A stretch of 63,888 nucleotides of DNA from Negaprion brevirostris. Lineage: Eukaryota. The stretch's first letter is position 1. Each line of letters begins with the position of its first letter. The notes under the pieces are model-generated. The model searched no databases, was not told where the DNA came from, and was given only the letters and a program-made list of their open reading frames with translations. The position numbers and the translations under genes were made by a program. Below, piece after piece: positions 15,498 through 62,575 of the stretch. The DNA is taken from the NCBI GenBank assembly GCA_030324005.1, contig JARDVH010000042.1, forward strand, positions 74,936,116 through 75,000,003, read 5' to 3'.

Positions 15498-15626
15498 ATG
15501 ATGTGGAGATGCTGGCCTTGCACTGGGGTGGGCACGGTAAGTAATCTCACAACACCAGGTTAAAGTCCAACAGGTTTATTTGGTAGCAGGAGCTTTCAGA
15601 GTACTGCTCCTTCATCAGGTGAGTGC
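15498..15626 (-). mobile_element. Penelope-like element 3'-terminal fragment with 15-bp flanking direct repeat
   Basis: homologous to 46916-47043; catttaaatctatga at 15487-15501 and 15627-15641. Confidence 0.85.
15587..15621 (-). ncRNA. minimal type-I hammerhead ribozyme motif (PLE family 1)
   Basis: CAC CUGAUGA A GGAG-cagua-CUCU GAAA GCUC cUG: core intact, palindromic AGCU helix III, one mismatch in helix I, G:U at the base of helix II. Confidence 0.7.
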
Positions 15627-17562
15627 CATTTAAATCTATGAAAGCTACATGGTTTACTTAATTGCTAACTTAGCCAGTTTATGTCCCAGTTATTTTTAAA
15701 TAAAGTATTTCTTTTGGTAAATCGCTAACATTTAATTCATGGAATTACCCTGTTACCTTTGTAAAGGTAGATTTTGATGTCACTGTAGCAACAAGCAGTA
15801 AACATTTGAATTTATTGCTGCCAGCTTGACCCTCTGTCGGGTCATTAAAGACAGTTGAATTGAATAAATCAATCTCTTTGTTTGCTAGCTGTTAAAACAT
15901 TTTATCTTGTGCTGGAATAACGACAATTCAATTTCAGTTTTTTTTGAAAAACATTTGGGGACCACATCAATCAATTTATAATCCCTGCAGATTTATTTCC
16001 ATGTAAATAGCAAATGAAGTACCTGATTCCAATCCATGCTGTGCCATTATTCGAGTCTCACCAACCACGGCTCGAGTATGACTTGGACCTGTTTATAGCC
16101 AGACTGATTCCTGGGGCTCACTGTAGGAAGTGGACTCACCTGGCCGGTCCATCCCACTACAAGCACGGCTTTTATGTGACTTTGGGCACATTTACATTCC
16201 TGGGTGAGTAAAGTGTTTAGTCACCAAACTTATTAAATGGAATATTTGTTTTTTCTTGGAGTTGGTGAGTGTGAAGTGGTAGGGGGTATGGGAATGGTGA
16301 ATGGACGATGATTTTGTCCCTCAGAAGCACAACCGTTCGATCAGCAGAGATTTGAATGGTTTTGTGTCCAGTGTTTGAGACCGATGGCTGGGTATGACAG
16401 TCACCTATTCTAGGAAAAGTTGACAAATCCATTTTCAATTGCTCTGGTGCCATATGTTTTGGAGCAAGGTACGAATATTTTAGAGGAACCAGTTTTCCCC
16501 GGGTAAGTTCGAGAAGTAGGCTGTAAAAAACTGATTTAGCTCAACAAATGCAGAGAAAAGTGAATAGAATAAGNNNNNNNNNNNNNNNNNNNNNNNNNNN
16601 NNNNNNNNNNNNNNNNNNNNNNNNNNNNNNNNNNNNNNNNNNNNNNNNNNNNNNNNNNNNNNNNNNNNNNNNNNNNNNNNNNNNNNNNNNNNNNNNNNNN
16701 NNNNNNNNNNNNNNNNNNNNNNNNNNNNNNNNNNNNNNNNNNNNNNNNNNNNNNNNNNNNNNNNNNNNNNNNNNNNNNNNNNNNNNNNNNNNNNNNNNNN
16801 NNNNNNNNNNNNNNNNNNNNNNNNNNNNNNNNNNNNNNNNNNNNNNNNNNNNNNNNNNNNNNNNNNNNNNNNNNNNNNNNNNNNNNNNNNNNNNNNNNNN
16901 NNNNNNNNNNNNNNNNNNNNNNNNNNNNNNNNNNNNNNNNNNNNNNNNNNNNNNNNNNNNNNNNNNNNNNNNNNNNNNNNNNNNNNNNNNNNNNNNNNNN
17001 NNNNNNNNNNNNNNNNNNNNNNNNNNNNNNNNNNNNNNNNNNNNNNNNNNNNNNNNAAATACAGAATTACTTAATTCTGAATGTATGAGGGTTCATACAG
17101 GTAAGCCCTCTTAATCGAACATAACGCAAGTCTGCTTTTTTGATTAATTCAGTATATTAATATTTTAATACACAGCTCACAATGTTTATAAATTGACATC
17201 CTGTTTAGACTTAACATTGCTTTTGATTTTACAATGAACAGTTTGTCCTGATGAACTACTATATTCCTTTATGTTCCATCTTTCACAATCCCAGGAAAGG
17301 CAAATTGCTTTTCAGATACACTATAGGAGTGTGTGAAAGTGTAGATACTATTATAGCATGGGAAATACACAACTGTAAAGCTACACTACATACACTACTG
17401 TATATTGTAGCAAGATCTCAAAAACTTTTCACAACTGAGTGAAAATAGGTTAGACCAGGATTTTTATTTTTGAAAATTACATTGATTTTAAAATGTATGA
17501 ATATGTATTTCTACAAGCTGCTCTACTTTGGATTGACAATTATCCATCATTTATAAAAGATA

Positions 17563-17714
17563 CTTTTTTCTACACCCTAGCTATGACTATATTCTGCACC
17601 CTTTTCTTCTCCCCTATGTACTCTTTATGAACAGTACGCTTTGTATAGTGCGCAAGAAACAATACTTTTCACTGTATGTTAGTACATGTGACAATAACAA
17701 CAAAATCACATATC
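17563..17714 (+). mobile_element. LINE 3'-UTR fragment (Rex/RTE-type tail)
   Basis: caatacttttcactgtatgttagtacatgtgacaataac tail; absent from the paralogous segment at 25574-25810; inverse copy at 23528-23720. Confidence 0.6.
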
Positions 17715-18639
17715 TAGTTTAGAATGAAATGAATTGAGAAACATAGTATTAATCACAATGTATTATTAGTCCTGCACGTTACATTTTGGACTTCAAGTGC
17801 ACACAATCTGACCCCCCAGTGAGGAATTTTAACTTCAAAATCAAATTTCAGGATCCAATCCCCCCTTTACAACATTGTTTCTATGGAAAAAATAGTCTTG
17901 ACTTGCAGTGCAGTTTTCAGGAACCAATGGTATCACAAGCTCAAGATGATAGTAAATCATTCAATACAGAAGGGAAAAAAGTATACTTACCAACTCAAAA
18001 CAGACTTTATGAGCTGACAGTTGATTAGGCTGCAGAGGGGTCACCTCAGTAACTCTTCTTTGACAACATGCTAAGATTTTTATCTCTGCGGGTACTTCCA
18101 GAACAAAGCTAACAGCGGGCCTATCTCAGCTTTGGGTTTTTAATCCCTTTTCATGAACACCACGATATGTCATGTCAAACTACCAATAGCTTATTGATTG
18201 ATTCTAGATGTATGTTAATTTAATTGGTCTTTAATTACATAACATCTCAGTTCAAAAGGGACAGTTTATGGAAGACAATAACTGCTTATTTACTAATCTT
18301 GATTAGATTAGATTAGATAACAATGAGTGTTATCTAACTATGAGCCAGACTTTGGCAGACCATGGTGTTCTGTGGCTTATCAAAAGTTAGAAATATTGCA
18401 TTGTCTGAGTGGCTTCTGCTAGCACAGTATCTTTATGAAACAGTTGGCATTATATTAATTTGAAATAAAAAGCTACTCTTCCCAATATATTTATCAATTA
18501 CGTGGATTCACTATAACTCAATCACGGTACATTTCTTAAAAAGATTATTGGTCATAATTTCCTCTGAGTGGCAATCAGTGGCAGGTTATTACTCCGTATC
18601 AATTTGCCTGTGCAAGAATTCTAAAGTGCCTGTCTCACC

Positions 18640-18966
18640 CATAAGAAATAGGAGCAAAATTAGGCCACTCGGCCCATCGATTCTGCTCCGCCATTCAATC
18701 GTAGCTGATTTTTTTTTCTCATCCCATTCTCCTGCCTTTTTCCCACAATCAAGAACCTATCTATCTCTGTCTTAAAGACGCTCAATGACCTGGCCTCTGC
18801 AGCCTTCTGCCGCAAAGAATTCCACAGATTCGCCACACTCTGGCTGAAGAAATTCCTCTTCATCTCTGTTTTATAAGAATATCCGTTTAGCCTGAGGTTG
18901 TGCCCTGTGGTTCTGGTTTTTCCTGCTAGTGGAACCATCCTCTCTACATCCACTCTATCCAGGTCT
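18640..18966 (-). mobile_element. CR1 LINE 3' end
   Basis: DRVDVERMVPLAGKTRTTGHNLRL...RNFFSQSVANLWNSL...FKTEIDRFL plus tail. Confidence 0.88.
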
Positions 18967-19137
18967 CTTAGCAAAGAACAACACAGAACGGGAAACAGGC
19001 CCTTCGGCCCAACGAGCCCGCGCCGCCGTCCCATTGTNNNNNNNNNNNNNNNNNNNNNNNNNNNNNNNNNNNNNNNNNNNNNNNNNNNNNNNNNNNNNNN
19101 NNNNNNNNNNNNNNNNNNNNNNNNNNNNNNNNNNNNN

Positions 19138-20319
19138 TCTCCTCTGCACTCTCTCCAGGATCTCTACATCCTTCCGGTAGTACGGCGACCAGAACTGGAC
19201 GCAGTACTCCAAGTTTCTGTAAGTTTCAATAAGATCCCCCTCATCCTCCTAAACTCCAACGAGTACAGACCCAGAGTTCTCAACCGTTCCTCATATGACA
19301 AGCTCTTCATTCCAGGGATCATTCTCGTGAATCTCCTCTGGACATTCCAGTCCTCTGGTAACCCTCTCTGCCATGATGTGGACATGCTGGCGTTGGACTG
19401 GGGTAAACACAGTAAAAAGTCTGACAACACCAGGTTTTAGTTCAACCGATTTATTTGATAGTTAACCCGAAAGCTTGTGAGTTTACTATCAAATAAATCG
19501 GTTGGACTAAAACCTGGTGGTGTCAGATTTTTTACTGTGTTAAGCCTCTCTGCCTCCAGTGATTCCTGAAAGATCACCACAATTGCCTCCACAATTTCCT
19601 CAGCTATCTCTTTTAGAACTCTGGGGTGTAGTCCATTTGGTCCAAGTGATTTATTCACCTTCAGACCTTTCAGTTTCCCCAGAACCTTCTCCTTAGTGAT
19701 GGCCACTAGACTCGTCTGTGCCTCTTGATTCTCCTGAAGCTCTGGTATTCCACTGGTGTCTTCCACCGTGAAGACTGATGCAAAGTAACTATTCAGTCCC
19801 TCTGCCATTGCTTTGTTTCCTTTTATTACTTCTCCAGCCTCATTTTCCAGTGGTTCAATGTCTATTTTTGCCTCTCTGTTATCTGTTATATATTGAAAAA
19901 AACTCTTCCTATCTTCTTTTATATTACTAGCTAGCTTACACGCATATTTCATCTTCTCCCTCTCTTATTGTTTTTTTTAGTTGTCCTCTGCTTGCTTTTA
20001 ATGGCTTCCCAATCGTCTGGCTTGCCATTAATCCTTGCCACTTTTTCTTTTGCTTTTATGCTGTCCTTGACTTCTCTCATCAGCCATGGATGCTTCATCC
20101 TCCCCTTAGCATGTTTCCTCCTTCTTGGGATGAATTTCTGTTGTGCCTCTCATATAACTCCCAAAAATTCATTCCATTGCTGTTCCACTGTCTTCTCTGC
20201 TAGGCTCCCTTTCCAATCAACTCTGGCCAGCTCCTCCCTCATGTCTTTGTTGTTACCTTTATTTAATTGTAATACCGTTACATCAGACTCCAGCTTCTCC
20301 CTCTCAAACTGCAGGGTAA
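19138..20319 (-). mobile_element. CR1 LINE ORF2 fragments (rearranged, interrupted by PLE hairpin)
   Basis: EYCVQFWSPYYRKD, RFTRMIPGMKSLSYEERL, KSLGPNGLHPRVLKE, LNSYFASVFT motifs. Confidence 0.88.
19373..19544. mobile_element. Penelope-like inverted (hairpin) terminal insertion with 10-bp TSD
   Basis: 57-bp inverted arms 19406-19462 / 19485-19541 (3 mismatches); TSD cctctctgcc at 19363-19372 and 19545-19554. Confidence 0.85.
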
Positions 20320-20473
20320 NNNNNNNNNNNNNNNNNNNNNNNNNNNNNNNNNNNNNNNNNNNNNNNNNNNNNNNNNNNNNNNNNNNNNNNNNNNNNNNNN
20401 NNNNNNNNNNNNNNNNNNNCACCGCCGGGGGGGGGGGGGGCGGGGGGGGGGGGGGGGGTGGTGGTGGTGGGTA

Positions 20474-23015: not shown

Positions 23016-23444
23016 TGATGTGGCGATGCCGGCGTTGGACTGGGGTAAGAAGTCTCACAACACCAGGTTAAATCCCAACAAGTTTATTTGGTAGCACAAG
23101 CAACTAGCTTTCAGAGTGCTGCTCTTACATCAGGTAAGTGGGAGTTCTGTTCACAAACAGGCCATATAAAGACACAAACTCAATTTACAAAATAATGGTT
23201 GGAATGCACGTCTTTACAGGTAATCAAGTCTTAAAGATACAGACAATGTGAGTGGTGAGAGGGTTAAGCACAGGTTAAAGTGTATTGTCTCCAGCCAGGA
23301 CAGTTAGTGAGATTTTGCAAGCCCAGGCGTGTCGTGAGGGTTACGGATACTGTGACGTGAACCCAAGATTCTGGTTAAGGCCTTCCTCATGTGTGCAGAA
23401 CTTGGCTATCAGTTTCTGCTCATATCCGTACACGAGGACAGCCT
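23016..23444 (-). mobile_element. Penelope-like element 3' portion with degenerate hammerhead (23102-23136)
   Basis: reverse complement is colinear with 46630-47043. Confidence 0.85.
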
Positions 23445-23527
23445 GAAACAGAATCTAATGTTGGAAATTGTTTGGTTCCACATTAAAATATAACTAGTTG
23501 ACTCAATTTTTTTTTAAAGAAAGTGAA

Positions 23528-24890: not shown

Positions 24891-27201
24891 GTATTTCTGG
24901 TGCTAAGTAAATGTTTTGTTTCCAAGTGTGGTCTGTTAGGATTATTCTTCCCTGGTCCTGTGTTCTCGTGAGCTCTAATTTGTTTCTTTGCTAAATTACC
25001 TTGATTCTTTTTATCACACTCGGTGAGCAAAATAAATGCTACTGCGACATTAGCATCTGCTTTAATGCCTAAATTTACAATTAATTTGAGGAAAGGTAGT
25101 TGATAACACAAGCATATGGCATTGATTTTCTCCACATGTGCCATATTCTTGATTGGCAGCACCTTGTAAAGCATCTTACATTAAATCTTAGAAAAGCTAT
25201 GTTGTCATCCCTGAACAAGTTTACTTCTATGGAAAATTCCCTAACAATTAGACACTGTCTCTATCACCTCTCGTTCTAGCCAATCTACATTGCACACTTG
25301 CTGCTGTTTTTTTATATATCCTTGCTGTAATTGTACTCCCTGCGGAGAACAACTTAGGTCTTGTTTACACAAATCCAGCATTGTCTTCTCCCTTTTGGAT
25401 CCTATACCTCTACCTACAAAAGCAGAAGTTCAATGTGACCTTTCAATGGTATTATTTACTTGATTGTCATCTTGATGAATGCATACCAATTATTTCACTT
25501 TGAAGTGAAAAGACTAACTGCTTCTGTTTGTGAGAAGTTGGTTGAGAGAGTGTAACGCAAAAGAATGACTAAATAGACCAGGTTTTATTTTCAGTAATTA
25601 CGTTAATTTTAAAGCCTGTTAATATGCATTTCTAAAAACTGCTGGACTTTGGATTGACAATTGCCCATCATTTATAGAAGATTAGTTTAGCATTAAATAC
25701 ACAGTAGTATCACAGTGTATTACTCCTACATTTTACATTTTGACAACACAAGTAATTGCACATTATCTAATCCTCTGAGGAATTATAACTTCAGAATCAA
25801 ACATCAAGGTTATGCTAGGGTTCTCAGACGGGTATCTTATCTTTTAAGTGTGACCCATTTGGGTAGATAATTATACAGAGTGAAAATTAAAATACCATTG
25901 AGTGTAAACTGGTGATTTTGCAAACCTTTAGTGTATTTCACTTAAGAGTGAAAAGTAGAAAAGTGCTAGGAATAAATTTCTCTGATAAATCTCTGCTTTC
26001 GAAATTGTTGTCTGAACAAAGAAAATTGTTATGAATGGATCACAATGGTTTACTCTTTATACAGAAAAGCAACATAAACTGTAGACATTACAATTAGATT
26101 AGAACTAATCTAAAACATGTACCTTAAATGGAAGATCAATGCACATCAAAATACGCTGAAAGTTTTGTGCAAAGATTAAGAAACTTGCAGATTTGCTTAA
26201 TAAGCCTGTAGTGGCTTGCTGCCCCCTGCTGACAATTTCACATAAGAACAGAATTAATAGTGCATTAATAGTCCAACCCTCGTCCACGGGCCACATCAGG
26301 GCCACCATCAGGCCTCTGCATTCAGGCCCATGGACCCCATGTTCAAAATGCCAATAAGTGGAATGGAAGATTCTGCAAGGATCGAGAGTGCCTTTCAGCA
26401 GCAAATGTGGGAAACAATTTCTAAATGGAGGAATGTAGAACTTAGCAACGGGAATAGAAGTATCTAGATTAGCCAAAGGTCTGAAAGATATCACTGACAA
26501 ATAACCTTATAATACCTTAATAAAATGATAAATTATTATAGAAATAGCTTTTTGGCTCCTGAAGAAAGCTTCCATGGCAGTTTCCTGGCTGACAAACATA
26601 GGCCTGTGGACTCTGCTAAGGACATGTCCAGCACTGCTTCAAAACAAGACATTTCTAATCCTGATAACATTGGATCCCTGACATAAACCAACTATCTGAT
26701 TAAAAGTCAAAACAATCTCTCAAGAAGTTGGAGAAAGAAATTCACTTTGGACACAAAAAAAAGTTTTTTTGATGTGGGGCCTCAGCCCAAAAATTAAACT
26801 TTGGTCAGAGGGGAGAGCCCACCCACACACACCCCCGCCACCCCCCCTGCCCTGCCCCCACCCCACCCCCTGCCCCCGCCCCACCCCNNNNNNNNNNNNN
26901 NNNNNNNNNNNNNNNNNNNNNNNNNNNNNNNNNNNNNNNNNNNNNNNNNNNNNNNNNNNNNNNNNNNNNNNNNNNNNNNNNNNNNNNCATGCTCCAGGGC
27001 TGCTAACCATTCCACCCAATGGGCTGTATGGTTTTCTCCCTACTTAGTTGATGCATCATTGTTAAACAGTTGCTTCATATTCAACTACTTTAAAAACCCT
27101 GGAGTTCAACCCTGTTTTAGAGAATCTGATTCCCAAATCAAAATATTACAAACCCTCATCAGCTTTTCTCCAAGGTATTGATCTGTTTAGTCATACTTAT
27201 A

Positions 27202-27976: not shown

Positions 27977-28879
27977 ACATTCTTTGCCATTATCATCTTA
28001 AAGCATATTATTTTATGGTCACAATTGCCCAGATGTTCTCCTACTTGTAGCCACTCCGGATCAGTCCCCAGTAACTAGTCCAACAGCAAATCTTCCATTG
28101 TGGGGCTTTTCACATTATTGGACTAGGAAGGAATCCTGCACACATTGTGGAACTCCATTTCTTTATCCCCTTCTGCCCAATTAATATCGCAGTAGTTGCT
28201 ATCCCCATGATTATTATTAGAACCATAGGAAAGTTTCAACACAGAAAGCCATTTAGCCTATCTTGTCCATGTCAGCCTAATGACACCCAAGTGCTGTTTC
28301 TAATCCTACCTTGCTGCACCAGGCCCATAGTTTTGTAGCTTACAGCACTTGAGTGCAGATCCAGGTACTTTTTAAAAGAGTTTAGGGACTGTGTCTCCAC
28401 CCCCCAACTCAGGCAGCTAATTCCTGACACTCACCACTCTTTGCGTAATAAAATTCTTCTTCATGTACCCTCCATACCTGGCACTTAATTTGAATCTGTT
28501 TTTATTTACTTAATTCCTTAATTTGTCACACATTTCTTTCACCAACTCCCTGCAACTATTAGGTAGTTTGTGGACTATACTGATTGACGTGATTGACCCT
28601 TTATTACCTTTTATCTCTATCTATATGGATTCTATTTGTCTCACCAATAGCTGCATCTCTATTTTCTCTAGTAATTATCTTAACCCTAATAGCACAACCA
28701 CCACCCAACCCCTGCCACCTTTTCCTTCTCAGCCTTTTAAATATGTTGCACCCTGGAATGTTTAGTTACTATTCTGATTTCTCTAGTCGTGCTTCAGACT
28801 CCTCCAAAACCCTCGGCATTGCATGCAGACTTTTCAACCAATCAACCAACATACCATACTTGTTGTCTGGAAGTGTTTT

Positions 28880-30445
28880 GGAGGGAATTGTTGACCAGTT
28901 GGAGAAAATCTCCATTACAAGGGAGGAAGTGTTAGGGTTTTTGGGTAACATTAAAACTGACAAATCTCCAGGGCTTGATAGCATTTATCCTAGGCTGCTC
29001 AGGGACGAGAGATGAAATTGCTGGGCCTCTCTGACGGAAATCTTTGTCTCTTCTTTGGACACAGATGAGGTCCCAAAGGATTGGAGGATAGTGAGTGTGG
29101 TACCGTTGTTTAAAAAGGGTGGTAGGGATAACCTGGGTAATTATAGGCCGGTGAGCTTGACATTAGTGGTAGGGAAGTTGTTAGAGAGGAATCTTAGAGC
29201 TAGGATGTATATGCATTTAGAACATAATCTGATTAGTGACAGGCAACATGGCTTTGCATAGAGGAGGTTGTGTCTTACAAATCTGGTAGAATTTTTTGAG
29301 GAGGTGACAAAAACGGTTGACGAAGGACNNNNNNNNNNNNNNNNNNNNNNNNNNNNNNNNNNNNNNNNNNNNNNNNNNNNNNNNNNNNNNNNNNNNNNNN
29401 NNNNNNNNNNNNNNNNNNNNNNNNNNNNNNNNNNNNNNNNNNNNNNNNNNNNNNNNNNNNNNNNNNNNNNNNNNNNNNNNNNNNNNNNNNNNNNNNNNNN
29501 NNNNNNNNNNNNNNNNNNNNNNNNNNNNNNNNNNNNNNNNNNNNNNNNNNNNNNATGATCTTATTGAATGGCGGGGCAGGCTCGAAAGGCTAGATGGCCT
29601 ACTCCTGCTCCTATTTCTTATGTTCTTATGAGACAAATAATCATTGTCAGGTTAGCAGAATGTATAGTGGAATGCTATAGGGATAAGTGCTGGAATTTCA
29701 GCTATGATTTAGACAGAGTAATGTGTCCAAGTTTGCTGATGATACGAAGCTAGGTGGGATTGCAAGCTGAGGAGGACAGAGGCTGCAAAAATAGGCAAGT
29801 TAAGTGAACGGGACACTTAGTACAAGGAAGGCAAAGTTAGCATATAGGTACAGCAAGCAATTAGAAAGGCAAATAACATGCTGTCCTTTATTGAAAATGG
29901 ATTGATGTACAAGGTAAATATATCCTGTTAAAATTGTACAGAGTTTTGGTGAGACCGCACCTGCAATAGCGTATGCAGTTTCGGTTTCCATAGTTAAGGA
30001 AGGATGTACTTCATTGGAGGTGGTACAGCGAAGATTAATTGCCCTATGATGAGGTTGAGTAAAGTGGTTCCATTATTTTCTGGCATCTATAAAAATGAAG
30101 TGATCTCGCTCCAAGATTCTCACTCCAGAATCACAAGATTCTGAAGGAGCTTGAAAGGGTTTTCCTCCTCTGGGGAATCTAAAACACAGGGAACTATCTT
30201 AGAATAGATGGCCAATCATTTAGGACTGAGATGAGGGGAAATTCCTTCACTCAAAAGGCACAAATCTTTGAAGTTTTCTATCCCTAAGGGTTGAGTGTTG
30301 AATATACTCAAGATCAGAATTTTTTGGTCTCTCAATGAATACTGAATATAGGGAGCAGGAAGGAAATTGCAGTTGAGCTGAAGATTGGCCATGGCTCAAC
30401 AGGTTGCACGGTTTACTTGCGCTCCAATTTCGCATGTTCTTATTC
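28880..30445 (+). mobile_element. CR1 LINE fragments (at least two copies around a gap)
   Basis: KSPGLDSIYPRLL, VPKDWR..VVPLFKKG.RD..GNYRPVSLT, QHGF, CLTNLVEFFEEV; decayed 3' part after the gap. Confidence 0.85.
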
Positions 30446-37885: not shown

Positions 37886-38129
37886 GACTTTTTTTGAACA
37901 TAGTGAATTGTGATCTTGAATGTTTCAAGTGAGAGGGTGGTGGAGACTGCTTCAATAGTAATATTCAAAAGAACTGGAAAAATTGCAGGACAATGGTAAT
38001 CAGATCAGGGAATGAGATTAATTCAATAGCTCAATGAAATATAGGTTCGATGGCCTACTTCTTTGTTTTATTAATTATTTGTATGGCTGAGAAAGCAGTT
38101 ATAGTTTACAAGTAGTCATTTGGTAATAC

Positions 38130-38280
38130 AGAAATTTATTGCTGGAAAAAGACATTTTGACAAAGCTTTTCATCTTGCACTCATCAGAACGACTGCAAGA
38201 ATCAGGAGAAACAACAACTTTATGCTACATGAGGAGAGAATGTTGACTGGCTAGCAGTTGTCAGTTTATAGAGTGTGGAG
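38130..38280 (-). mobile_element. PLE family 2 terminal fragment with hammerhead motif (38157-38192)
   Basis: reverse complement tcgtt CTGATGA gt-gcaag-at GAAA agct tt gtcaa; homologous to 62420-62575. Confidence 0.65.
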
Positions 38281-45040: not shown

Positions 45041-45042
45041 TG

Positions 45043-45232: not shown

Positions 45233-47043
45233 TATCTCTGTTGCCTCCCGAAAATACATAAGACAAACACACCCGTCCCATCGTATGGGACCCATGCGAG
45301 AACCTCTCCGGCTACATCGAAACCCATTGTACAAAGAACCCCCTAGCTTTTGTTGCGACATTACAGACTTCCTACAGAAAGTCAGCACACATGGAGCTGT
45401 TGAACCAGGAGCACTCCTCATCACAAAGGATGTCACGGCACTCTACAACCAGCACCCCCCACGACGATGGCATTGCTGCAATTGCTTCAGTCCTCAACAC
45501 TGACAACTGCCGGTTTCCAGATGCAATTTTACAACTCATCCGTTTCATCCTGGACCACAATGTCTTCACCTTCAACAACCAGTTCTTCATCCAGACACAC
45601 CGAACAGCCATGGGAACCAAATTCATACCATCTTCATGCACAGGTACCTCTTCACTGCACAGAACCTTCAACCAATCAACACACTAGATACATCGATGAC
45701 ATTTTCTTCGTTTGGACTCATGGTGAACAATCACTGAAACAATTATATGATGACATCAACAAGTTCCATCCCACCATCAGACTCATCATGGACTACTCTC
45801 TGGAATCAGTTGCGTCCTTGGACACACGCATCTCCATCAAGGACGGTCCCCTCAACACTTCACTGTACCGTAAGCCCACGGATAACCTCACGATGCTCCA
45901 CTTCTCCAACTTCCACCCTAAACATGTTAAAGAAGCCATCACCTACAGACAAGTCCTCCGTATACACAGGATCTGCACAGATGAGGAGGATCGCAACAGA
46001 ATCTCCAGGCATTGAACGATGTCCTCATAAGAACAGAATATGATGCTTGACTCATCAATTGACAGTTCCGACACACCACAGTGAAAAACCGCACCAACCT
46101 CCTCAGAAGACAAACACGGGACATGGTGAACAGAGTATCCTTTGTCATCTAGTACTTCCCCGGGAGGAGAAACTATGACATCTTCTTCGGAGCCTTCAAC
46201 ATGTCATTGATGAAGATGAACATCTCGCCAAGGCCCCTCTACTTGCTTTCAACAACCACACACCCTCAAGCAGACATTGTTGGCAGCAAACTACCCACCC
46301 TTCAGGAGAATAGCGACACCACACAACCCTGCCACAGCAACCTCTGCAAGACGTACCAGATCATCAACACGGATGCCACCATCTCAGGTGAGAACACCAT
46401 CCACCAGCTACACGGTACAACATTGTCTATTTGATATTCTGCAGGAAAGAATGGCAAGACCATGTAGATGCTATGACAACGGATGAATGGACACCATTTG
46501 ACAATCATCAGCCAGAAGTGTTGCCTTCCTGTCGGAGAACACTTCAGAGTCAAAGGCATTCAGCCTCCAATCTTCAGGTAAGCGTTCTCCAAGGCAGCGT
46601 TCAAGACACATGACAACACAGAATTGCCAAGCACAAACTGATAGCCAAGTTCTGCACACATGAGGACAGCCTCAACCGGGATCTTAGGTTCATGCCACAC
46701 TGCCTGTAATCCTCACGACTTGCCTGGGCTTGCAAAATCTCACTAACTGTCCTGGCTTGAGGCAATTCACACCCCTTTAACCTGTGCTTAATTCTTACTC
46801 CACTCGCATTGTCTGTACCTGTAAAGACTTGATTACCTGTTAAGACTTGTATTCTAACCATTATCTTGCAATTGAGTCTGTGTCTATACATGCCCTGTTT
46901 GTGAACCAAATCCTGCACTCACCTGATGAAGGAGCAGTGCTCTGAACGCTCGTGCTACCAAATAAACTTGTTGGACTTTCACCTGATGTTGTGAGACTTC
47001 TTACTGTACCCAGCCCTGTCCAACACCAGCATTTCTACATCAT
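45233..47043 (+). mobile_element. Penelope-like retroelement (5'-truncated RT + GIY-YIG remnant + 3' terminal repeat with hammerhead)
   Basis: CLPKIHK, DVTALY, HNVFTFNNQFFIQTHRTAMGT, RYIDDIFFVWTHG (YIDD at 45689-45700), LYRKPTD; IVYLI.C GIY-like motif near 46420; many frameshifts. Confidence 0.92.
46920..46954 (+). ncRNA. minimal type-I hammerhead ribozyme motif (PLE family 1), core mutated
   Basis: CAC CUGAUGA A GGAGC-agu-GCUCU GAAc GCUC GUG; helix I CAC/GUG; GAAA changed to GAAC. Confidence 0.65.
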
Positions 47044-47549
47044 ATTTTTCTAGCATTGGCTTGATGGGCAGAATGGCTTCCACTGTGCAGAATATTACTC
47101 TGATTAGATAGTTCCTTCAAAGAGCTGTCACCCACGCAATGGACTGAATGACCTCCCTCCGTGCTTTACCTGCTGTGATATAATGCCCAGTGCAAGTGAG
47201 GTCCCTCTTATCCTCTCCACCATCCCGATCACACTCACTCTCACTTCGTCAAGCAGATTCAGGAGACTGGGGCAGGGAAGTTGATGTCAGAACGGACCCT
47301 TAACCCAGCCCTGACACAGCACAGTTACAGAGCTCTGTGCGCCCTGCCGAATGATCCCATCCATCAGTCAACCATTCGAGCAAGTATTCATCACGTCTCA
47401 CCCAGCAGCTCATCACCTGCCTTCTGTGTAGATACCCTTAACCATTTGATAACATCCAGTAACCTCCTGTCTGCCTCCTGAGTCTCCCTTCCATGCATGG
47501 AGTGTGGCGAATCAACAGGGTCTGGGGAAGATTGGGGTTTTTACACTGT

Positions 47550-50121: not shown

Positions 50122-50848
50122 AGAGTCACAGAGGTTTATAGCATGGAAACAGGCCCTTCGGCCCAATTTGCCCGTGCCACCCTTTTTCTTTAAATCCCTA
50201 AGCTAGTCCCAATTGCCTGCATTTAGCTCTTATCCCTCTATACCCATCTTACCCATGTAAATATCTAAATATTTTTTAAAAGGTAAAATTGTATCTGTCT
50301 CTACTACTACCTCTGGCAGCTTGTTCCAGAGGCTCACCACCCTTCCTGCAGAAAAAAAATGGCATACTTTTGGACACTTTTATAACTTTCCCCTCTCATC
50401 TTAAACCTATGCCCTCTAATTTTAGACTCCCCTACTTTTGGGAAAAGATATTGACTATCTAGCTGATCTATGCCCATCATTATTTTATAGACCTCAATAA
50501 GATAACCCCTCAGCCTTCTAGGCTCCAGAGAAAAAAGTCCCAGTCTGTCCTGCCTCTCCTTATAACTCAAACCATTAAGTCCCAGTAGCATCCTAGAAAA
50601 TCTCTTCTGCATCCTTTCTAGTTTCATAATCTCCTTTCTATAATAGGGTGGCCAGAACTGTACACAATATTCCAAGTGTGGCCGTACCAATATCTTGTAC
50701 AACTTCAACAAGACATTCCAACTCCTGTATTCAATGTTCTGACCAACAAAAATCAAGCATGCTGATTGCCTTCTTCACCACTCTGTCCGCCTGTGATTCC
50801 ACTTTCAAGCAGCTGTGAACATGTACCCCTAGACCTCTTTGTTCTGTC
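50122..50848 (-). mobile_element. CR1 3' end (relatively young subfamily)
   Basis: LYKILVRPHLEYCVQFWPPYYRK...RGHRFK; close inverse homolog of 55075-55774. Confidence 0.9.
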
Positions 50849-50929
50849 ACTCTATAAACTCTATAACTACTCTCAGTACACTGGATTCCAGTAAGAGTGG
50901 TGGCAGCAAGAAGAAATAATAGAGAATTA

Positions 50930-53900
50930 AGACATAAGAACACAGGATTAGGAGAATTAGGCCATTCTGCCCCTCCAGTCTGCTCCATCTTTCAATTACA
51001 TTACAGCTGATCTTATTTTGGCCTCCACACCACCATCCTGTCCACCCCATAGCCTATAATCTTTTGTTTATCAAAAGTCTACTTTAGCTTTGAATGTATT
51101 CAATGATTCGGCCTCAAAAGCTTTCCAGGTCTCAACCTACAATGGGAGACTCTTAATTTTTAAACAGTGTCTCCTAGTTGTCATCTTCTCCAAATGCATA
51201 AAACATCTGCCCAGGAGCAACCCTGCTGAGTCCTCTCAAACGTTTTCTATTTCATCAAGGTTACCTCTTATTCTTCTAAGCTCCAATTGGCATAACCCCA
51301 CTCGTTCAACCTTTCCTCAAAAGATAATCAGTGGAATCATCCGAGTGAAACTTACCTGCACTGCTTCTAGTGCAATTACATCCTTTAAGTAAGTAGACCA
51401 AAACTGTACACAGTACTCCAAATGTGGCCACTCCAAAGCCCTCTACAGCGACAGCAAGACTTTCAGACTGTTACACTTGATTCCATTTGTAATATAGGTC
51501 AACATTCCATTTGCCTTCCTCATTACTTGCTGTACCTGCATATCAACTGTGCGAATCCTATATCAGGACACTCAGATCCCTCTGAACATCAGAGTACTGC
51601 AGTCTCACTCCATCCAAGTAACATACTGCTTTTCTATTCCTCCTGCCAAAGTAGATAAGTTTACATTTTTCCACATTATACTCCAACTGCCAAATGTTTG
51701 CTCACTCACTTAACCTAGCTAAATCCCTTTTGCAAATTACTTTCCTATCTATCATTGTGCCATTAGCAATGTAGCTACCATATATTCAATCCCTTCATCC
51801 ATAGATTGTAAATAGTTGAGGCCCAAGTACCGATCTTTGTGTTATTCCACTAACAGCAGCTTGATAACTTGAAAATGATCCATTTATTCCTACTCTATCC
51901 TTCCTGTTAACTAACCAATTAGTTATCCATGCTAATGCGTTGCCCATAATATCTTACTTTGTGTGGTAACCTTTGAAATGACACTTTGTTAATCCTCTCT
52001 TGGAAATCCAAATACAGCACCACCAGAGTTTCCCTTGATCAATGCTGCTTGTTACTTCCGTAAAGAACTCAAGTAAACTTGTCAGATATGATTTCCCTTC
52101 CACAAAATCATGCTGACTCTGCCTGACTGAATTGTAATTTTCTAAATTTCCCACTATTACCTCCCTTAATAATGGATTCTAGTATTTTCCTTATTGTTTT
52201 GGAAGATTACAACCAATGTATCTATTAAATCTTATCTACTTCTTTTAAGACCCTAGGATGAAAGCCATTAAGGGTATGTCAAACTTCTTTTCTAATTGTT
52301 TTTCTGGTACCTTTTCCTTAGTGAATGTTTTAAGCTCCACCGCTTTTATCTCTGGGGTTTTTTTTAAAGGTATTCTTGGGATGTTTATGTCTTCTACGGT
52401 GAAAATGAAAAAAAAAAAGCCTTATTTTCACCATTTCCTACTTCCTATTATTAATTCTCATCGTCTAAGGGAGGGTCACTTTAATTACTTTTCCTTTTTA
52501 AATACTTGCAGAAACTCTTAGTAGCTTTCTCTTATGCTGTAATTTCTCCCTCCTTATTTTTAGTCATTTAGCTTAAAGTCCTTTCTACTACCCTTATATG
52601 ACTTGCCAGAAACTCTTCCAGCATATTTAAACTGAAGATCGTCCCAATGGTGCAGAGTTTTTTGAAGGGGTAACCAAGAAGGTAGATGAGGACAGTGCAG
52701 TTGATGCTGTCCACGTGGATATTAGCAAGGCCTTTGACAAGGTACCACATGGTAGGTTGTTGCACAAGGTTGAATCTCAAGGGATCCAGAGTGAGGTAGC
52801 TAAATGGATACAGAATTGGCTTGCTGACAGAAGCCAGAGGATGGTTGTAGAGGGTTGTTTTTCAAACTGGAAGCCTGTGACCAGCGGTGTGCCTCAGGGA
52901 TTGATGCTGGGTCCATTGTTATTTATCATTTATATTAATGATTTGGATGAGAATATAGGAGGCATGGTTAGTAAGTTTGCAGATGACACCAAGNNNNNNN
53001 NNNNNNNNNNNNNNNNNNNNNNNNNNNNNNNNNNNNNNNNNNNNNNNNNNNNNNNNNNNNNNNNNNNNNNNNNNNNNNNNNNNNNNNNNNNNNAATTACC
53101 TGCTGCACCTGCGAACCAGCTTTTGGTGACTCGTGCACAAGGACACCCAGATCCCTCTGCACAGCAGCATGCTGCAGTTCTTTACCATTTAAACAATAGT
53201 CCATTTTGCTGTTATTCGTACTAAAATGGATGACCTCACATTTATCAACATTGCACTCCATCTGCCAGATCCTTGCCCACTCACTTAGGCTATCTCCCTT
53301 TGCAGACTTTCGACATCCTCTGCACACTTTGCACTGCCACTCATTTTGGTGTCATCTGCGAATTTTGACACACTACACTTGGTTTCCAACTACAAATCAG
53401 CTATGTAAATCGTAAACAGTTACGATCCCGACACTGATCCCTGAGGCACACCACTAGTCACTGAAAACCAGAAAAACACCCATTAACCCCCACTCTTTGC
53501 TTCCTGTTAGTTAACCAATCCTCTATCCGTGCTAATACATTATCCGTAACACTGTGCACCTTTATCTTAAGCAGCAGCCTTTAGTGCGGCACCTTGTCAA
53601 ATGCCTTCTGGAAATCCAGATACACCACATTCACGGGTTCCCCACTGTCCATCGTACACATAATGTTCTCAAAGAATTCCACCAAATTAGTCAAACATGA
53701 CCTGCCCTTCATGAACCAATGCTGTGTCTTCCCAACGGGATAATTTATATCCAGATGCTTCACTATTTCTTCCTTGATGATAGATTCAAGCATTTTCCCA
53801 ATGCTTGAGTAATCCAAGATTACTTTGAAAGTCCTCCACTGTTCCTCAACTCACCATAAAGTTTTTGCTCACTCCTCCCTCATCCCATTGTAGTCTCCTT

Positions 53901-57267: not shown

Positions 57268-57740
57268 ACAGCTTGTACTTGCATAGTGCCTTTAACATAG
57301 TTAACCTTCCTAAGGTGTTTGGCTGGAGCATTACAAAGCAAAATTTTGACACTAAGCCCCATGAAGAGATATTACGGCAAGCAATCAAAAGCTTGGTTAA
57401 AAGCATGTTTTGAAGAAGCAGAGAGAGGAGGGGAGAGACGAGGGGAGAAATTCCAGAACTTAAGGCCCTGGCAGCTGAAGGCACAGCTTGCCAGCACACA
57501 TGGTGGAGTGAATAAAATTGGGGACACGCAAGAGGCCAGAGTTGGAGAAGTGCGGATTTCTCACAGGGTTAATGAGCTGGAGAAGAACACAGACAGCAAG
57601 ACCACAGAGGAATTTGAAAACAAGCATATGAATTTTAAAATCCCGCCACCATTTAACCAAAGGCCTGTGCAGGTTAATGAGCACAAAAGTAATAGGTGAA
57701 CAGGACCTGGTGCAAGCTAAGACATACATAGCATTTTTTA
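57268..57740 (-). mobile_element. L2-type LINE 3' end, decayed
   Basis: antisense tail tatgttaaaggcactatgcaagtacaagctg; similar relic at about 33680-33890. Confidence 0.55.
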
Positions 57741-57820
57741 AATATGTAGGTATGGTTTATTCAACAACAAATCCTGCATTCTGGTAATTATAGTCCAAAT
57801 ACAGATTATTGAATGCTTAC

Positions 57821-58039
57821 AGAAAAAGGGTCCGCTTGCTCCCAAGAGAAAGGTGATCCCCGCGAAGCTGGTCGAACCTTCTCAGGAAGAGATTCTGGCA
57901 CAGCTACTAAGATAAAGCAGATGTCCAATGCTGCAATCACAGTGGCTACAAGGACCACAAGGTTATCACCATATTTACTTGAAAGATAAGCACCAATGGC
58001 TGGACTGGTTACCAAGCTTGCTGCAAATGTTGCTGACAC
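57821..58039 (-). CDS. MFSD14B: MFSD14/HIAT1-family MFS transporter exon (most 5' exon found in window)
   Basis: tag|GTG...TCT|gtaagc; 219 bp; VSATFAASLVTSPAIGAYLSSKYGDNLVVLVATVIAALDICFILVAVPESLPEKVRPASRGSPFSWEQADPFS. Family is secure; A versus B paralog call is tentative. Confidence 0.92.
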
Positions 58040-59679
58040 CTAGAGAAGCAACAAAAAAAGGTTTTACTTGCCAGCTCATTAACAGGTTAATATTTACAAT
58101 GCGAACATCTTTAAAAACAAAAAAAAAACCTCCGAGGTATACTATTCTACAGGCATAGTGGGAATAAAACTGGTCCACGCCAATGCAAACAAACTCACGC
58201 AATTGGCAGCCAGTTCCATACAGTGCCTGGTTTTCCCTTCAACAGACTTAAATGGACAAGAAAATCAAGCATGTTATAGCATGGGCTGCTAATTCACTAT
58301 GATCTCATTTGCACTACTAGCAGAGACCAATTCTCCCTGTCATTTATTGTTGAAAATAAGTATTTTGCAATATTTTGCCCAATGAGGTAGGAGTGGAGAG
58401 CCCAAATGCAATAAACTGTACTGTACAACACTGTAAATTGTACTATGTGCCACTAATCTCACTACTGCTTGACCAATAAGTAAGTGTCTCGTTGTCATGG
58501 GAATTGTCCCTTAACAAAGAATTAGATCTAATTCAAAAACTTGACCCAACTTCATTTATTTTGTGCCAGAGGCAGAGTGGATTACTACAGGAGCTAAAAT
58601 TCTGACAATAACTCCACTGAATACAAGTTGAATAAAAATGCTGCCAGACTCTCAATAAAAAGCTATCCTGTTTTAGGGCTGTTTTATCACAAAGTGATAC
58701 CACTTACAGACGGATGCCATACAATACCATTATATAGTGATTTTCTTTCATTGACAGAAACAATGCCTGCAAAATTAAACAGTTTAAAATGGAAAGCTAA
58801 ATTTGTAAAGTCATGCTCAACAGCAATAAATTAAAAACATTTAGTTACTTTGTTTGACTGTTTCACAAATAATATAAATAAAACAATTCTATTAAAAAAC
58901 CCTACATATTCATTGCTGTTAAATTTATGCTGTTGACTCACTACCAACGTTGAACTCTTTCAATGGTCATTGACAATATCTAACATATTGGGACAGCACA
59001 AACACTTCAATCACTTCTTTTCCCTTTTCTTATGACTGTTGGTGCTGCATATGCACCACTTAGTATGTAGCCAACAGCAATAGGAAGGCAAGCCATCATC
59101 TGGCAATTATCTCACAATGAAACAAAACATGCTCTTTTTGTAGTATATTAGCTCCATTAAATAATGAAAGTATCAAAGCCAGAAAACATTTAATATAAAC
59201 TATTTTGAATATTAGTTGTCTTCATTTCTGTCCTTCAGTTTCAGCATTTACAATCTTTGGATCACAATAGTCTCTAAGGTGCGATTGGGGTTGCAAATTT
59301 AAACTTCTGGATATTAAAACTGCTAATATGATTCTATACAATAGCACAAAATAAATTTTGTTTAATCTGGAACCGTATGCAATTAAAATTGAATAAGTTC
59401 AAATAGTACTCCAAGAATCAAGGTTATATATTCTTCTATTCACAAATTCTTTGCAAAATAAATAGGAGCTTGTGGGGAATAATGCTATAAATGCATCTAC
59501 AATTCTGTGAAAATAAGAAAAGAAAGCAAAATATATGCCCTACTGATTAGTAGATTTTATTTGAAGAAAATATTAACCTAATTTCAATGCACGAGTTCCA
59601 AACAGAAGGCAGCAAATACTGTAATGGTATTGCTTCTTTAAATATTTTGCCACAAATGAATCTTTGAGATGGCATTTTT

Positions 59680-59850
59680 TTAAAAAAAAAGTCATTCATA
59701 GGATTTGGCTATCACTGGCTAGGCCAGCACTTATTGCCATCCCTAACTGCCTTGAGGAGGTGGTAGTGAGCCATCTTCTTGAATTGCTGTAGTTCATGTG
59801 TTGTAGGTAATATAGGAAGGGAATTCCTGGATTTTGACATAGTGTCAAGC
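59680..59850 (-). mobile_element. LINE/SINE shared 3' tail fragment
   Basis: inverse homolog of the tail at 7850-7960 and 35020-35090. Confidence 0.55.
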
Positions 59851-59867
59851 GAAAAAACGGAAATAAA

Positions 59868-60238
59868 GAGTGTCACGGTGGCACAGTCATTAGCACTGTT
59901 GCCTCATAGTGCCAGGGACCTGGGTTTGATTCAAGCCTCAGGTCAGTGTCTGTATGGAGTTTGCACATTCTCTCCATGTCTGCATGGGTTTCCTGTGGGT
60001 GCTCCAGTTTCCTCCCACAGTCCAAAAATGTGCAGGTTAGGTTGATAGGCCATGCACATTCTCCCCTTGTCCGCGTGGGTTTCCTTGACAACATGGTGGC
60101 ACAGTGGTTAGAATTACTGTCTCTCAGCGTTAGGGACTTGGGTTCAATTCTGGCCCCAGGTGACTGTCTGCGTAGAGTTTGCATATTCTCCCCATGTCTG
60201 CATGCGTTTCCTTGGGTTCTCCAGTTCCCTCCCACATG
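59868..60238 (+). mobile_element. two tandem HE1/V-SINE heads
   Basis: head + V-domain 59868-60052, short V-domain repeat 60053-60085, second head + V-domain 60090-60238, then a gap. Confidence 0.8.
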
Positions 60239-60264
60239 NNNNNNNNNNNNNNNNNNNNNNNNNN

Positions 60265-60335
60265 AATGGCGGGGCAGGCTCGAAGGGCTGGATGGCCTAC
60301 TCCTGCTCCTATTTCTTATGTTCTTATGTTCTTAT
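60265..60335 (+). mobile_element. young CR1 3' tail
   Basis: near-identical to the tails at 29555, 36715, 40170 and 11443; (ttcttatg)x2-3. Confidence 0.85.
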
Positions 60336-62229
60336 ATCGTACGCACTTTAATCAGACTTTTATTATTCAACACAGTCATAAAAGGCATCCTGCCTGATTT
60401 TCCAGCCCTACATAAAAATTGGTGTAAAAAAGTAGGCTTCAGTAAAGGCATGTGCTTATCTTCACTTGATGTTTCCACCTTTACTGTACCCAAGCAATCC
60501 AATAGCCCCAGGAGCAGGAAAAGTCAGTCCATCATTTCTATTTGTTATTTTCCCTTTCATTTCCCAGAGGGAATTGAAAATCAGTGGCACAAAGCACAGA
60601 AGCAAAATATTGTGTAAGCTGCAAACAGAAAATGCTGGAAATACTCAACAGGTCTGACAATGTTTGCTGAGGTTGAAACAGAGGTAGTGTTTCAGATCTG
60701 TGACCTTGCGTCACATAGGATGATAGCGCATGCATATAGAGTTTCCCATATCTAGATCAAATGGGTTGCTGGTTTTTCCCTTTGGTCTTGAATTCAATAA
60801 GCAGGAAGCAGAAATATTTACCGACAAGGTGGGTTAATTTAAAGCCTCAAAATAAATAGTGAATGAGTTAGATACAAAGTTGATAAAAAGGAAGGCAGTT
60901 GAGGGTAAAGGCAAAAGAAGGCAATCAAATTAATACAAGTGAAACATACAAGGATAAAAGATAGGGTAATCCAGAACAGCCCTAATGAGATGAAATAGCC
61001 CCTTGAACTCATTGCTTTTCATTAAAATCTCTGCCCCATATGTCCTACCAAGGTTAAAAGATGGGCAGTGTGCTTTGAAGTCCTTTAGGTATGGTGCACT
61101 AAATATCTATCAGAAAGAAAGCAAGTCTGTTTGATTGACCTTATTCATCACTTTTTCCTCCCACTTTTCAAGCCGAGTAGCATTCAATCACTTGGTAAAC
61201 AGCTCGTGAAAGTCAGAGAGTAAACCTGTATCCGATCATTTCGTATCATTTATACACTGAGACATTGTTCTATTAATTTTATGGGTAAAATGGTGCCCAG
61301 CAGAATTTCAGCCTAACTTTGCATCCAAGTTGAAAGAATATCATTTCACGTACATGAATCAGCTTTAATCTCCAAATAGAAACCATTAATTGTGCATGCA
61401 ATGAAACTGCTAATTTCAATAACATTTGATCATGCCAGATCTTAGACAAATGTTGCAAATAAACGATTTCTGACATATAGTTAGAAGAGGGTTGTGCAAT
61501 ACCAATAGCAGACACTGAACACAAATGTGGACAAAAGGCAACACAGTCTCATCTACTCGAAGCCAGACTGCACAGTGGTAACACCAATGGTTTGGCAGAA
61601 GGCCAGGGCTCAATGTATAATGATAAATAGGATAGAGATATTGCACAAAATCTAAGAAATGTAGTGAAGTTACAAAGGACCGGAAATCACACCTACAGTT
61701 TAACATTTTACTTCAGTACAGACTCAACTGTTTAAACGGCTAATTGGAGGATCAGAAAATACGTTGCACCTCTTTTCCGATCTTCCAGTTCCAATACCAA
61801 ATATCTAATTCATTTCCATCCATCAAATTACCACTGTAATATTTCATTTTACCAAGAGTGCGCAAATAAAATTGAAATAACTGGGTGCCGGAAGTCTGTG
61901 GTTCATCAGTAACGATTACAAAGTCGAGTGGAGTGGGGTGGAGTCTACCAAATAGGGTCAAAAGAGCTCATGCAATGCGTGTGTAGGAGGAGACACAAAA
62001 CATCAAACAAAACAAGGTTTTATGCAAAGAACCAAAAGTACCCAAGAGTTGATTATAATACCTTGCTAGATCATCTTTTGTAAAAGAGAACTGCTTCAAA
62101 TCTGAACAGCATAAAGAACATAAAGTATATTGGCATGAAAAAGTCCAGATTGATGAAATACACTCAAAGTCCATGACTACGCTCTTTCAAGACACAGTTA
62201 CAGATCCAATGTAATAGGCAAAGTACAGA

Positions 62230-62575
62230 CACTACTCAACTAGCAACTGGACAGTACTTGCTGAATAATCCCGTGTGTCCTAATTAACAACCAATTTCAG
62301 ATAATCAGTTGAGTTCATAACATGGCTCAATTATGCTTGCATTCATATGCAGAGATCTACAATATATTTTGACCTGCATCTTTTTCAAATTACTCAGAAG
62401 CATGGGGACATATAGTTCTCCATGGCAATGCCTTGGCCAGAGTCAACATACCAACTAATCAGCAGCCTCCCCACCCCCACCATCGCATAAATTGTTGTGA
62501 CTGTTTGAAATTTGGCATCGTCCTGACGAGTGAAAGATGAAAATCTTTGACAAATCGCTCTCTTTTCAACAAGAC
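62230..62575 (+). mobile_element. PLE family 2 3' end: GIY-YIG C-terminal remnant + hammerhead motif (62518-62553)
   Basis: ATGQYLLNNPVC..NQFQIIS..HNMAQL remnant; tcgtc CTGACGA gt-gaaag-at GAAA atct tt gacaa. Confidence 0.6.

Follow-up and report, generated by a model that had tools for sequence, protein, structure and literature searches.

Decayed hammerhead ribozyme motifs of two repeat families in a shark locus, with a predicted pseudoknot in one of them

Introduction

Can a hammerhead ribozyme with hardly any helix II belong to a Penelope-like element (PLE), and what would then brace its core? The question is raised by a stretch of 63,888 nucleotides of Negaprion brevirostris DNA (contig JARDVH010000042.1, positions 74,936,116 to 75,000,003; the whole stretch is called the window), in which an initial annotation placed hammerhead motifs of two distinct Penelope-like families. 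Our analysis leads, with moderate confidence, to a joint reading of this locus: the motifs are decayed copies of two shark repeat ends, family 1 being that of a Neptune-type PLE and family 2 that of a likely PLE whose hammerhead would contain a pseudoknot.

Results

Inventory of the hammerhead motifs

All six motifs lie where the initial annotation had placed them and on the strands that it gave. Family 1 is found at 15587-15621 (-), 23102-23136 (-) and 46920-46954 (+), with a half copy at 19467-19479 (+), and family 2 at 38157-38192 (-) and 62518-62553 (+). With a relaxed hammerhead score, the five full copies were within the top six matches of the window, and six matches reached a score of at least 6, compared with about 1.0 per shuffle in 10 shuffles. 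The family 1 copies share 74 to 87% mutual identity, and those of family 2 are 74% identical across 89 bp (E = 1e-11). The six motifs are not chance occurrences; they are real, but every copy is damaged. The consensus motifs quoted in the initial annotation are present and homologous within each family; what had been overlooked is the individual damage in each copy. Of the full copies, 0/5 passed a strict hammerhead descriptor, and Rfam searches with the window and with positions 38080-38280 gave no hammerhead match. The sixth top match, at 25775, and lower ones were rejected as further hammerhead families, as they lack both a full core and a homologous copy.

The damage differs from copy to copy. 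At 46920, GAAC replaces GAAA and A15.1 is lost; the 23102 copy has CUGAUGU in the core and a 7-nt duplication; at 15587 the first helix-I pair, beside the cut site, is mispaired. Among five helix-I positions of the 38157 copy there are two mismatches and one wobble, and the 62518 copy reads AAUCUU where the palindrome is expected. G10.1-C11.1 is kept in none of the five full copies, with G-U in four and A-U in 23102, while the half copy at 19467 retains CCGAAA. We infer that the ancestral 10.1-11.1 pair was G-C and was lost through CpG decay. Because they are isolated and mutated, the copies in the window probably no longer cut. For both families, cleavage is predicted 3′ of UH, and the proposal that minimal type-I hammerheads lie at the ends of two repeat families held.

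Predicted fold of the family 2 hammerhead

The short family 2 copy at 38139-38225 (-) is located in an intron of a major facilitator superfamily (MFS) gene, in the sense orientation. Its motif has the core starting at 38187, G10.1 at 38180, loop II at 38179-38173, the AAGCUU palindrome at 38168-38163 and the predicted cut 3′ of 38162; the core and the palindromic helix III are kept (CUGAUGA, GAAA, AAGCUU and UU). CUGAUGA is followed in family 2 by nine bases, G-UGCAAGA-Y. Of these, UGCAAGA, the seven nucleotides that separate G10.1 from 11.1, is perfectly complementary to UCUUGCA, a leader at 38194-38200 (-) that ends one base before helix I and that represents the predicted second strand of a pseudoknot. 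The initial annotation missed this complement and described a 2-bp helix II; probably, helix II has one pair only and the leader adds a 7-bp pseudoknot. The 38157 copy has 7/7 Watson-Crick leader-loop pairs, and in the loose-end consensus of sequencing run X2 (47 contigs) the leader and loop are identical to those of that copy, again with 7/7 pairs. The chance of a full seven-pair match without G-U pairs was 0.0009 for random 13-mers, 0.0028 for random 25-mers, 0.0024 for loop shuffles and 0.0033 for leader shuffles.

Position 11.1 is C, followed by A, in both loose-end consensuses (runs X1 and X2), and the window copies have TG there; TG and CA would be two decay products of one CpG. In family 2, then, the 7-nt loop is closed by G10.1-C11.1 as the only pair and has a partner strand on its 5′ side, with C11.1 taken from the consensus, as U is found in both window copies. 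With at most two pairs, its helix II falls short of the 3-7 bp required of a PLE hammerhead. On account of the 7-nt complement, the agreement of the consensus and the phage parallels described below, we propose that one G-C pair and a 7-bp pseudoknot to the leader 5′ of helix I replace helix II in family 2. A one-pair stem II with a pseudoknot is an active hammerhead fold (PMC3088659).

A fold with a 2-bp helix II (GU/AC), a 5-nt loop, no tertiary pairing and an inactive leader appears rather unlikely to us. Its G-C/U and U-A pairs can form in both window copies, two-pair stems II are common (PMC3088659), and forms with 1-2 bp in helix II cleave slowly in fungal viruses (PMC13725137). However, it leaves a perfect 7-nt complement beside helix I unexplained (chance 0.001-0.003) and gives up seven pairs for one extra, and phage cores of the same G-N7-C type mostly have a partner (20/28).

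Phage hammerheads with the same core

Those phage cores come from a scan of viral sequences for CUGAUGAG-N7-CGAAAC, which yielded 117 loci in 29/64 parts scanned. Removal of duplicates and of loci with less than 35 nt upstream left 98, among which 28 are distinct, full type-I hammerheads. Twenty of these 28 have a partner of at least five Watson-Crick pairs. The partner is a far leader, as in RAGATH-1, in 11 cases (0.6 expected), and a near leader, directly 5′ of helix I, in 9 cases (2.0 expected; maximum of 6 in 500 shuffles). The other 70 loci include three of the near class, against 1.6 expected. Between phage loci, the partner sequences of the near class differ on both sides. As a control, 0/16 canonical PLE hammerheads reach five leader pairs. 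The layout of family 2 thus occurs in nature, and a G-N7-C core usually has such a partner.

Rfam was run on 20 chosen loci. Six far-class loci pass the RAGATH-1 gathering score, and near-class loci gave weak matches, matches only from model position 26, or none. Nine loci (L083, L104, L111, L126, L127, L137, L138, L158 and L195) combine a one-pair helix II and a near partner without helix IV, and none of them attains the Rfam gathering score. An alignment of ten near-class phage motifs loses the leader register, and the pair counts were not drawn from it.

The repeat that carries family 2

The longer family 2 copy is a host of about 370 bp at 62216-62585 (+), delimited by contig depth and consensus peptides, whose upstream part is likely the C-terminal end of a PLE endonuclease. 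The number of contigs of runs X1 and X2 aligned to 62040-62680 was 303 and 476, respectively, with depth raised from about 62200 to 62570. Family 2 is the end of a high-copy repeat, which extends some 300 bp upstream of the hammerhead core. In majority letters, helix I is UUGUC/GACAA (from 62519 C>T) and the core is CUGAUGA. The hammerhead of this copy, at 62518-62553 (+) and antisense to the MFS gene, is decayed: its palindrome is broken (AAUCUU), its loop is changed and its leader is likely lost. Because loose ends begin at 62518 and there is no substitution at 62511-62517, a deletion of about 9 nt in the leader is suggested.

Hand translation of the consensus loose ends gave the peptides NNPECANSYT and EATYIHTQ(E/G). 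Compared by eye, the latter resembles EALYITTQSP, the endonuclease end of Nematis_C4 (PMC8557442, Fig. S2). The host of family 2 is thus very probably a second PLE family, the one line of support being this peptide match by eye. Hence, of the two Penelope-like families in the initial annotation, the first is confirmed by a protein match and the second is suggested by a visual comparison. No RT (reverse transcriptase) sequence was found in the short family 2 copies. A YIG-like word at 62126 was discarded as a GIY-YIG motif, because its position is beyond the repeated part, where the depth is that of a single contig. A scan of viral sequences for the family 2 DNA pattern gave 0 matches.

Several points weigh against the joint reading. 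With G-U pairs allowed, the chance of a full leader-loop match is 0.006-0.065, depending on the null, against the low figures obtained without them. The leader complement was noticed after the fact, and the 38157 copy and the run consensuses belong to one family and count as one observation. No compensatory double change is seen in any shark copy (two window copies and two per-run consensus strings). In the X1 consensus (30 contigs, agreement 0.66), the loop reads UGUAAAA and the leader is unchanged, giving five Watson-Crick pairs, one G-U pair and one mismatch; the 62518 copy reaches at most three to four leader-loop pairs. Some of the nine near-class phage loci are related to one another. 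In addition, when the 38157 copy is folded to minimum energy, its seven leader-loop pairs form a plain hairpin that closes over the core (z -1.65, with 11/200 shuffles equally stable). As for the host, one protein search returned three candidates, none at E ≤ 10, and a second returned no candidate; comparison with 208 proteins and 80 open reading frames (ORFs) of the locus gave no match, Pfam was blank as well for the family 2 read-through frames, and target-site duplications of at least 8 bp are absent at both copies.

The folding result is what would be seen if leader and loop II formed a plain hairpin in which the helix-I strand and some of CUGAUGA are also engaged, either as an off state to be opened by a dimer partner or by the PLE protein, or as the relic of a local inverted duplication like those at PLE repeat ends. 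This we consider unlikely. Minimum-energy folding yields this hairpin for the 38157 copy both as a monomer and as a dimer, PLE terminal repeats hold palindromes of 18-38 bp (PMC3846280), and in the anole, cleavage by the PLE hammerhead depends on the protein of the element (PMC11167929). However, the folding program draws no pseudoknots and so cannot separate a hairpin from a pseudoknot, and the perfect pairing spans exactly the seven nucleotides that the loop has between 10.1 and 11.1, a feature shared with the near class of phages. Cofolding of the decayed copies gave no hammerhead folds, which the program cannot draw, and was set aside as evidence.

The null results for the host also bear on the idea that family 2 is not a PLE end but a short interspersed nuclear element or a retrozyme-like repeat with a hammerhead. 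The lack of a protein match and of a target-site duplication speaks for it, and type-I hammerhead retrozymes are reported in one chondrichthyan genome (bioRxiv 10.64898/2026.07.22.740005). We nevertheless regard it as very improbable: on its upstream side the repeat reaches about 300 bp beyond the core, the EATYIHTQ(E/G) peptides are close to the Nematis_C4 end by eye, and the copies are solo here, not tandem. The reading that we prefer for family 2 remains that of a likely PLE end with a predicted pseudoknot.

The Penelope-like element that carries family 1

The longest family 1 copy, at 45242-47044 (+), is a 5′-truncated, frameshifted element comprising RT, a CxxxxCxxC linker region, a GIY-YIG endonuclease extending to 46706 and a terminal repeat with hammerhead and tail. 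Its open frame at 45686-46012 matches 66 of 140 candidate proteins, the best of them, from Scyliorhinus, Mustelus and Heptranchias, at 79-83% identity, in agreement with the shark origin proposed in the initial annotation. By tblastn, residues 120-643 of P0006, a Heptranchias protein of 643 residues, are collinear along 45242-46706, an alignment that starts in RT and includes the final residue of the endonuclease, with a best E value of 3e-74 and 79% identity in the RT block. Proteins related to this host contain the RVT_1 domain, and its shark relatives possess the endonuclease motifs as well as the zinc finger of the linker. The linker reads CHSNLCKTC in P0006 and CHSNLCKTY in the window copy; a linker of the CX2-5CxxC type is given for Neptune and Nematis (PMC8557442). 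The reading frame is broken in this copy, and Pfam found no RT or GIY-YIG match in 12 read-through frames of four hosts. The protein match and the linker and endonuclease motifs bear out family 1 as a PLE, and the latter two, on which the choice of Neptune over Nematis depends, indicate that it is the 3′ end of one of Neptune type.

The hammerhead of this element, at 46920-46954 (+), is decayed, intronic and antisense to the MFS gene; its core starts at 46923, with the extra A at 46930, helix II GGAGC/GCUCU and GAAC. A second, truncated copy at 23016-23421 (-) consists of the last 25 endonuclease codons (23421-23347), the terminal repeat and the hammerhead (23136-23102), and is 80.6% identical to 46630-47042 over 422 columns. 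Those 25 codons match the last 25 residues of P0006 (tblastn, 76%, E = 6e-7). The hammerhead core starts 217 nt past the endonuclease end in the 46920 copy and 214 nt past it in the 23102 copy. The claim that the motif lies just 3′ of a GIY-YIG remnant therefore applies to 46920, where shark PLE proteins are matched in RT, linker and endonuclease, and to 23102, but for 62518 the protein searches lend it no support.

The other two family 1 insertions show target-site duplications at either end. A 125-bp copy with hammerhead (15621-15587) and tail, at 15502-15626 (-), lies between 15-bp duplications (15487-15501 and 15627-15641). At 19373-19544, two family 1 ends form a head-to-head inverted pair joined at the half hammerhead (19467-19479, +), with a 10-bp duplication (19363-19372 and 19545-19554). 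Random pairs of borders (n = 300) gave a repeat of at least 13 bp in 0 cases and of at least 10 bp in two. No target-site duplication of at least 7 bp was found at the remaining 2/4 insertions. The terminal tail of about 33 bp is present on the left arm of the inverted pair only. Truncation, inversion and a one-sided tail are described traits of PLEs (PMC8557442; PMC3846280), and family 1 displays 5′ truncation, target-site duplication, an inverted repeat and an optional tail of 30-40 bp. No tandem copy of family 1, in a pseudo-long-terminal-repeat arrangement, is present within the window, and scans of metagenome and viral sequences for its DNA pattern gave 0 matches.

Two side observations concern these short insertions. 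The strand switch of the inverted pair occurs at the hammerhead, the arms starting about 11 nt before and about 5 nt after the predicted cut site. The 125-bp copy starts just 5 nt upstream of helix I (15622-15626), so that hammerhead and tail moved as a unit; a truncation and a short non-autonomous form are indistinguishable at this locus. An Rfam match of MIR5070 at 19416-19531 (57.8 bits, gathering score 100) was dismissed, as it merely reflects the long hairpin formed by the inverted repeat.

Family 1 among related PLE hammerheads

The initial annotation presented the extra A after CUGAUGA and the AGCU palindrome as shark variants. Both had been published as general traits of PLE hammerheads in 2014, as an extra nucleotide between 9 and 10.1 and a palindrome at 15.2-16.2 (PMC4209133). 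AGCU is seen in several of the 56 representative motifs of that study, among which there is no chondrichthyan (PMC4209133 supplement). We compared family 1 with the best 80 of at least 434 confirmed related PLE loci. Within this set, 16 loci have 18 strict hammerhead matches, all on the ORF strand, compared with one match in five shuffles. The extra A is present in 18/18 of these matches; AGCU occurs in L009 and CAC/GUG in L065.

A minimal PLE hammerhead is defined by CUGANGA, an extra nucleotide, a helix II of 3-7 bp, GAAA-NN-UH and a helix I of at least 3 bp. Family 1 conforms to this definition at the family level only, since for each position one or more of the four copies is undamaged, and no single copy conforms in full. 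The family 1 hammerhead is an ordinary PLE end, and it extends a known association to another shark locus.

Observations were also made on other PLE loci. A subclade of 18 loci (L020, L022-L024, L028, L029, L031, L033, L034, L036-L039, L041-L044 and L046) shares CUGAUGA and GAAACCGU-type ends along with a short helix II (e.g., L020:3250 and L034:3430). In 7/18 of them, ACGGUH and a helix-I strand 130-220 nt downstream make up a type-I hammerhead with a loop III of about 150 nt, which descriptors would miss. At L020:3229-3266, L022:4051-4091, L024:4912-4948 and L034:3413-3446, a complementarity of 6-8 bp links the leader and helix II/loop II, and both strands vary among these four loci (CAUGGGG/CCCCAUG, CCCUGGGG/CCCCAGGG and CCGUGA/UCACGG); this leader pairing may be a second case in PLEs. 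L066, L068 and L069 (contig WLWD01001510.1) are near-identical PLE ORFs that follow each other in tandem at intervals of about 4035 bp; this array gave no strict hammerhead match.

Proposed mechanism of cleavage

PLE dimers cut weakly and monomers did not (PMC4209133), and a PLE protein assists hammerhead cleavage (PMC11167929). An intact source element would yield a tandem transcript in which two cores exchange strands and the AGCU or AAGCUU palindromes form a shared helix III of 4 or 6 bp. The RNA would then be cut 3′ of UH, probably slowly and with help from the protein of the element. In family 2, the leader would pair with loop II and so brace helix I against the position of helix II, in the manner of the loop-loop contacts of fast hammerheads. 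By pseudoknot geometry, a link of 0-1 nt can span a helix of 6-7 bp.

The MFS gene and its surroundings

In a motif scan, the minus strand proved to hold an MFS transporter gene, of which six exons were located, at approximately 58033-57824, 56510-56394, 42520-42419, 41812-41711, 34124-34011 and 33644-33438. One of the six matches MFS_1 with an E value of 0.0066, below the Pfam cut-off, the exons also fall in Atlas MFS clusters, and a PDB search with one exon returned nothing useful. We take the gene to be MFSD14, a name that no tool gave. The orientations in the initial annotation were correct: 46920 is antisense and intronic, 38157 sense and intronic, and 62518 antisense. The last copy lies 5′ of the first exon found and is thus probably intronic. 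The copies at 15587, 19467 and 23102 are situated 10-18 kb beyond the MFS stop.

The sense copy at 38157 raises the idea that the host has kept it to cut or regulate the MFS pre-mRNA. This copy retains CUGAUGA, GAAA, UH, AAGCUU and 7/7 leader pairs in addition to its sense, intronic position. Against such a use, two of the five helix-I positions are mismatched and a third is a wobble, 11.1 is U, and no second family 2 copy on the same strand is available in the window for a dimer; we find the idea hardly credible. Generally, the copies of this locus are unlikely to affect the MFS gene, because antisense copies cannot act in its pre-mRNA, and because helix I of the sense copy is disrupted and the window offers it no partner.

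Two further features of the window were noted. Coiled-coil-like coding stretches at 750-1110 (+), with no Pfam match, may be exons of a neighboring gene that faces the MFS gene, presumably SASS6 judging by synteny. Many fragments of another repeat with an RT of the LINE (long interspersed nuclear element) type, which we assume to be CR1-like, occur at 19437-20470, 28600-29630, 50334-50774, 52631-53351 and elsewhere, and assembly gaps are often found at their ends.

Discussion

Family 2 likely combines two modules known so far only apart. That it is, within a PLE, a pseudoknotted hammerhead devoid of helix IV, with a palindromic helix III that forms in the dimer only, and therefore invisible to the PLE descriptor and to Rfam, we hold tentatively, at a little short of an even chance. 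Our literature search found neither a shark PLE hammerhead nor a pseudoknotted PLE hammerhead; a prior description, for example in large variant surveys, is possible. Lunse et al. 2017 is reportedly the largest survey of hammerhead variants. Pseudoknot terms in the accessible text of PMC8557442, PMC10085705, PMC6765202, PMC13725137, PMC7761336 and PMC7936874 led to no description of a pseudoknotted PLE hammerhead.

If the pseudoknot is real, family 2 would be a PLE ribozyme with a tertiary brace of its own, which could cleave fast without protein once dimerized. PLE hammerheads cleave poorly (PMC4209133), and a Watson-Crick brace would make it possible to judge cleanly, by mutation and rescue, whether these elements select for fast cleavage. 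It would also reveal a blind spot of descriptors that demand at least 3 bp in helix II, which may bear on the "HHR_core" cases of PMC8557442; similar folds may hide among "core-only" PLE motifs that fit no descriptor. With about 45 nt and six fixed palindrome bases, the motif is cheap to test. PLE hammerheads are described as devoid of helix III or of the tertiary loop-loop contacts, and their role is given as unknown (PMC7761336).

Both families resemble the minimal hammerheads (min-HHR) of PLEs described by Cervera and de la Pena in 2014 (PMC4209133): they are of type I, lie in a terminal repeat 3′ of an endonuclease (a likely one in family 2), and have a palindromic helix III and, ancestrally as we propose, G10.1-C11.1. 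As in that study, most window copies are solo and truncated. Family 1 further shares the extra nucleotide and a 5-bp helix II. The published descriptor, in contrast, calls for a helix II of 3-7 bp and a 4-nt palindrome and so misses family 2; the shortest helix II listed has 3 bp. For the family 1 host, the nearest parallels are PLEs of the Neptune clade (RT, CX2-5CxxC linker and C-terminal GIY-YIG) and the shark proteins P0001 and P0006, the RT block being 79% identical to that of P0006 and the alignment collinear to the C terminus, whereas the window copies are truncated and frameshifted.

The Poseidon element PAc of the anole (PMC11167929) has, like family 1, a PLE hammerhead at the junction of repeat and ORF. 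Its optional tail reflects two RT start sites, which matches the one-armed tail at 19373-19405. PAc differs from family 1 in its clade and in that its hammerhead has been tested: cleavage is assisted by the protein, and the ribozyme is dispensable for insertion in vitro. No RNA-seq ends map to its hammerhead site.

The near-class phage hammerheads, together with those of Perreault et al. 2011 (PMC3088659), share with family 2 the G-N7-C core, a partner of 5-6 bp 5′ of helix I and the absence of helix IV. They differ from it by a closed helix III of 5-7 bp, by an expected action as monomers and by their location on viral contigs; common descent with the shark motif is not shown. The RAGATH-1, or pseudoknotted, hammerhead (RF03152; PMC11300833), whose helix-IV form is highly active and has been solved structurally, is of type I as well, and in both it and family 2 a single G10.1-C11.1 pair closes a 7-nt loop that is paired, by prediction in family 2, with a strand 5′ of helix I. 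Unlike RAGATH-1, family 2 lacks helix IV as well as an A-rich linker (its leader ends 1 nt before helix I), carries a palindrome instead of a closed helix III, and is not matched by RF03152. It therefore falls outside RAGATH-1 and, at most, works like it.

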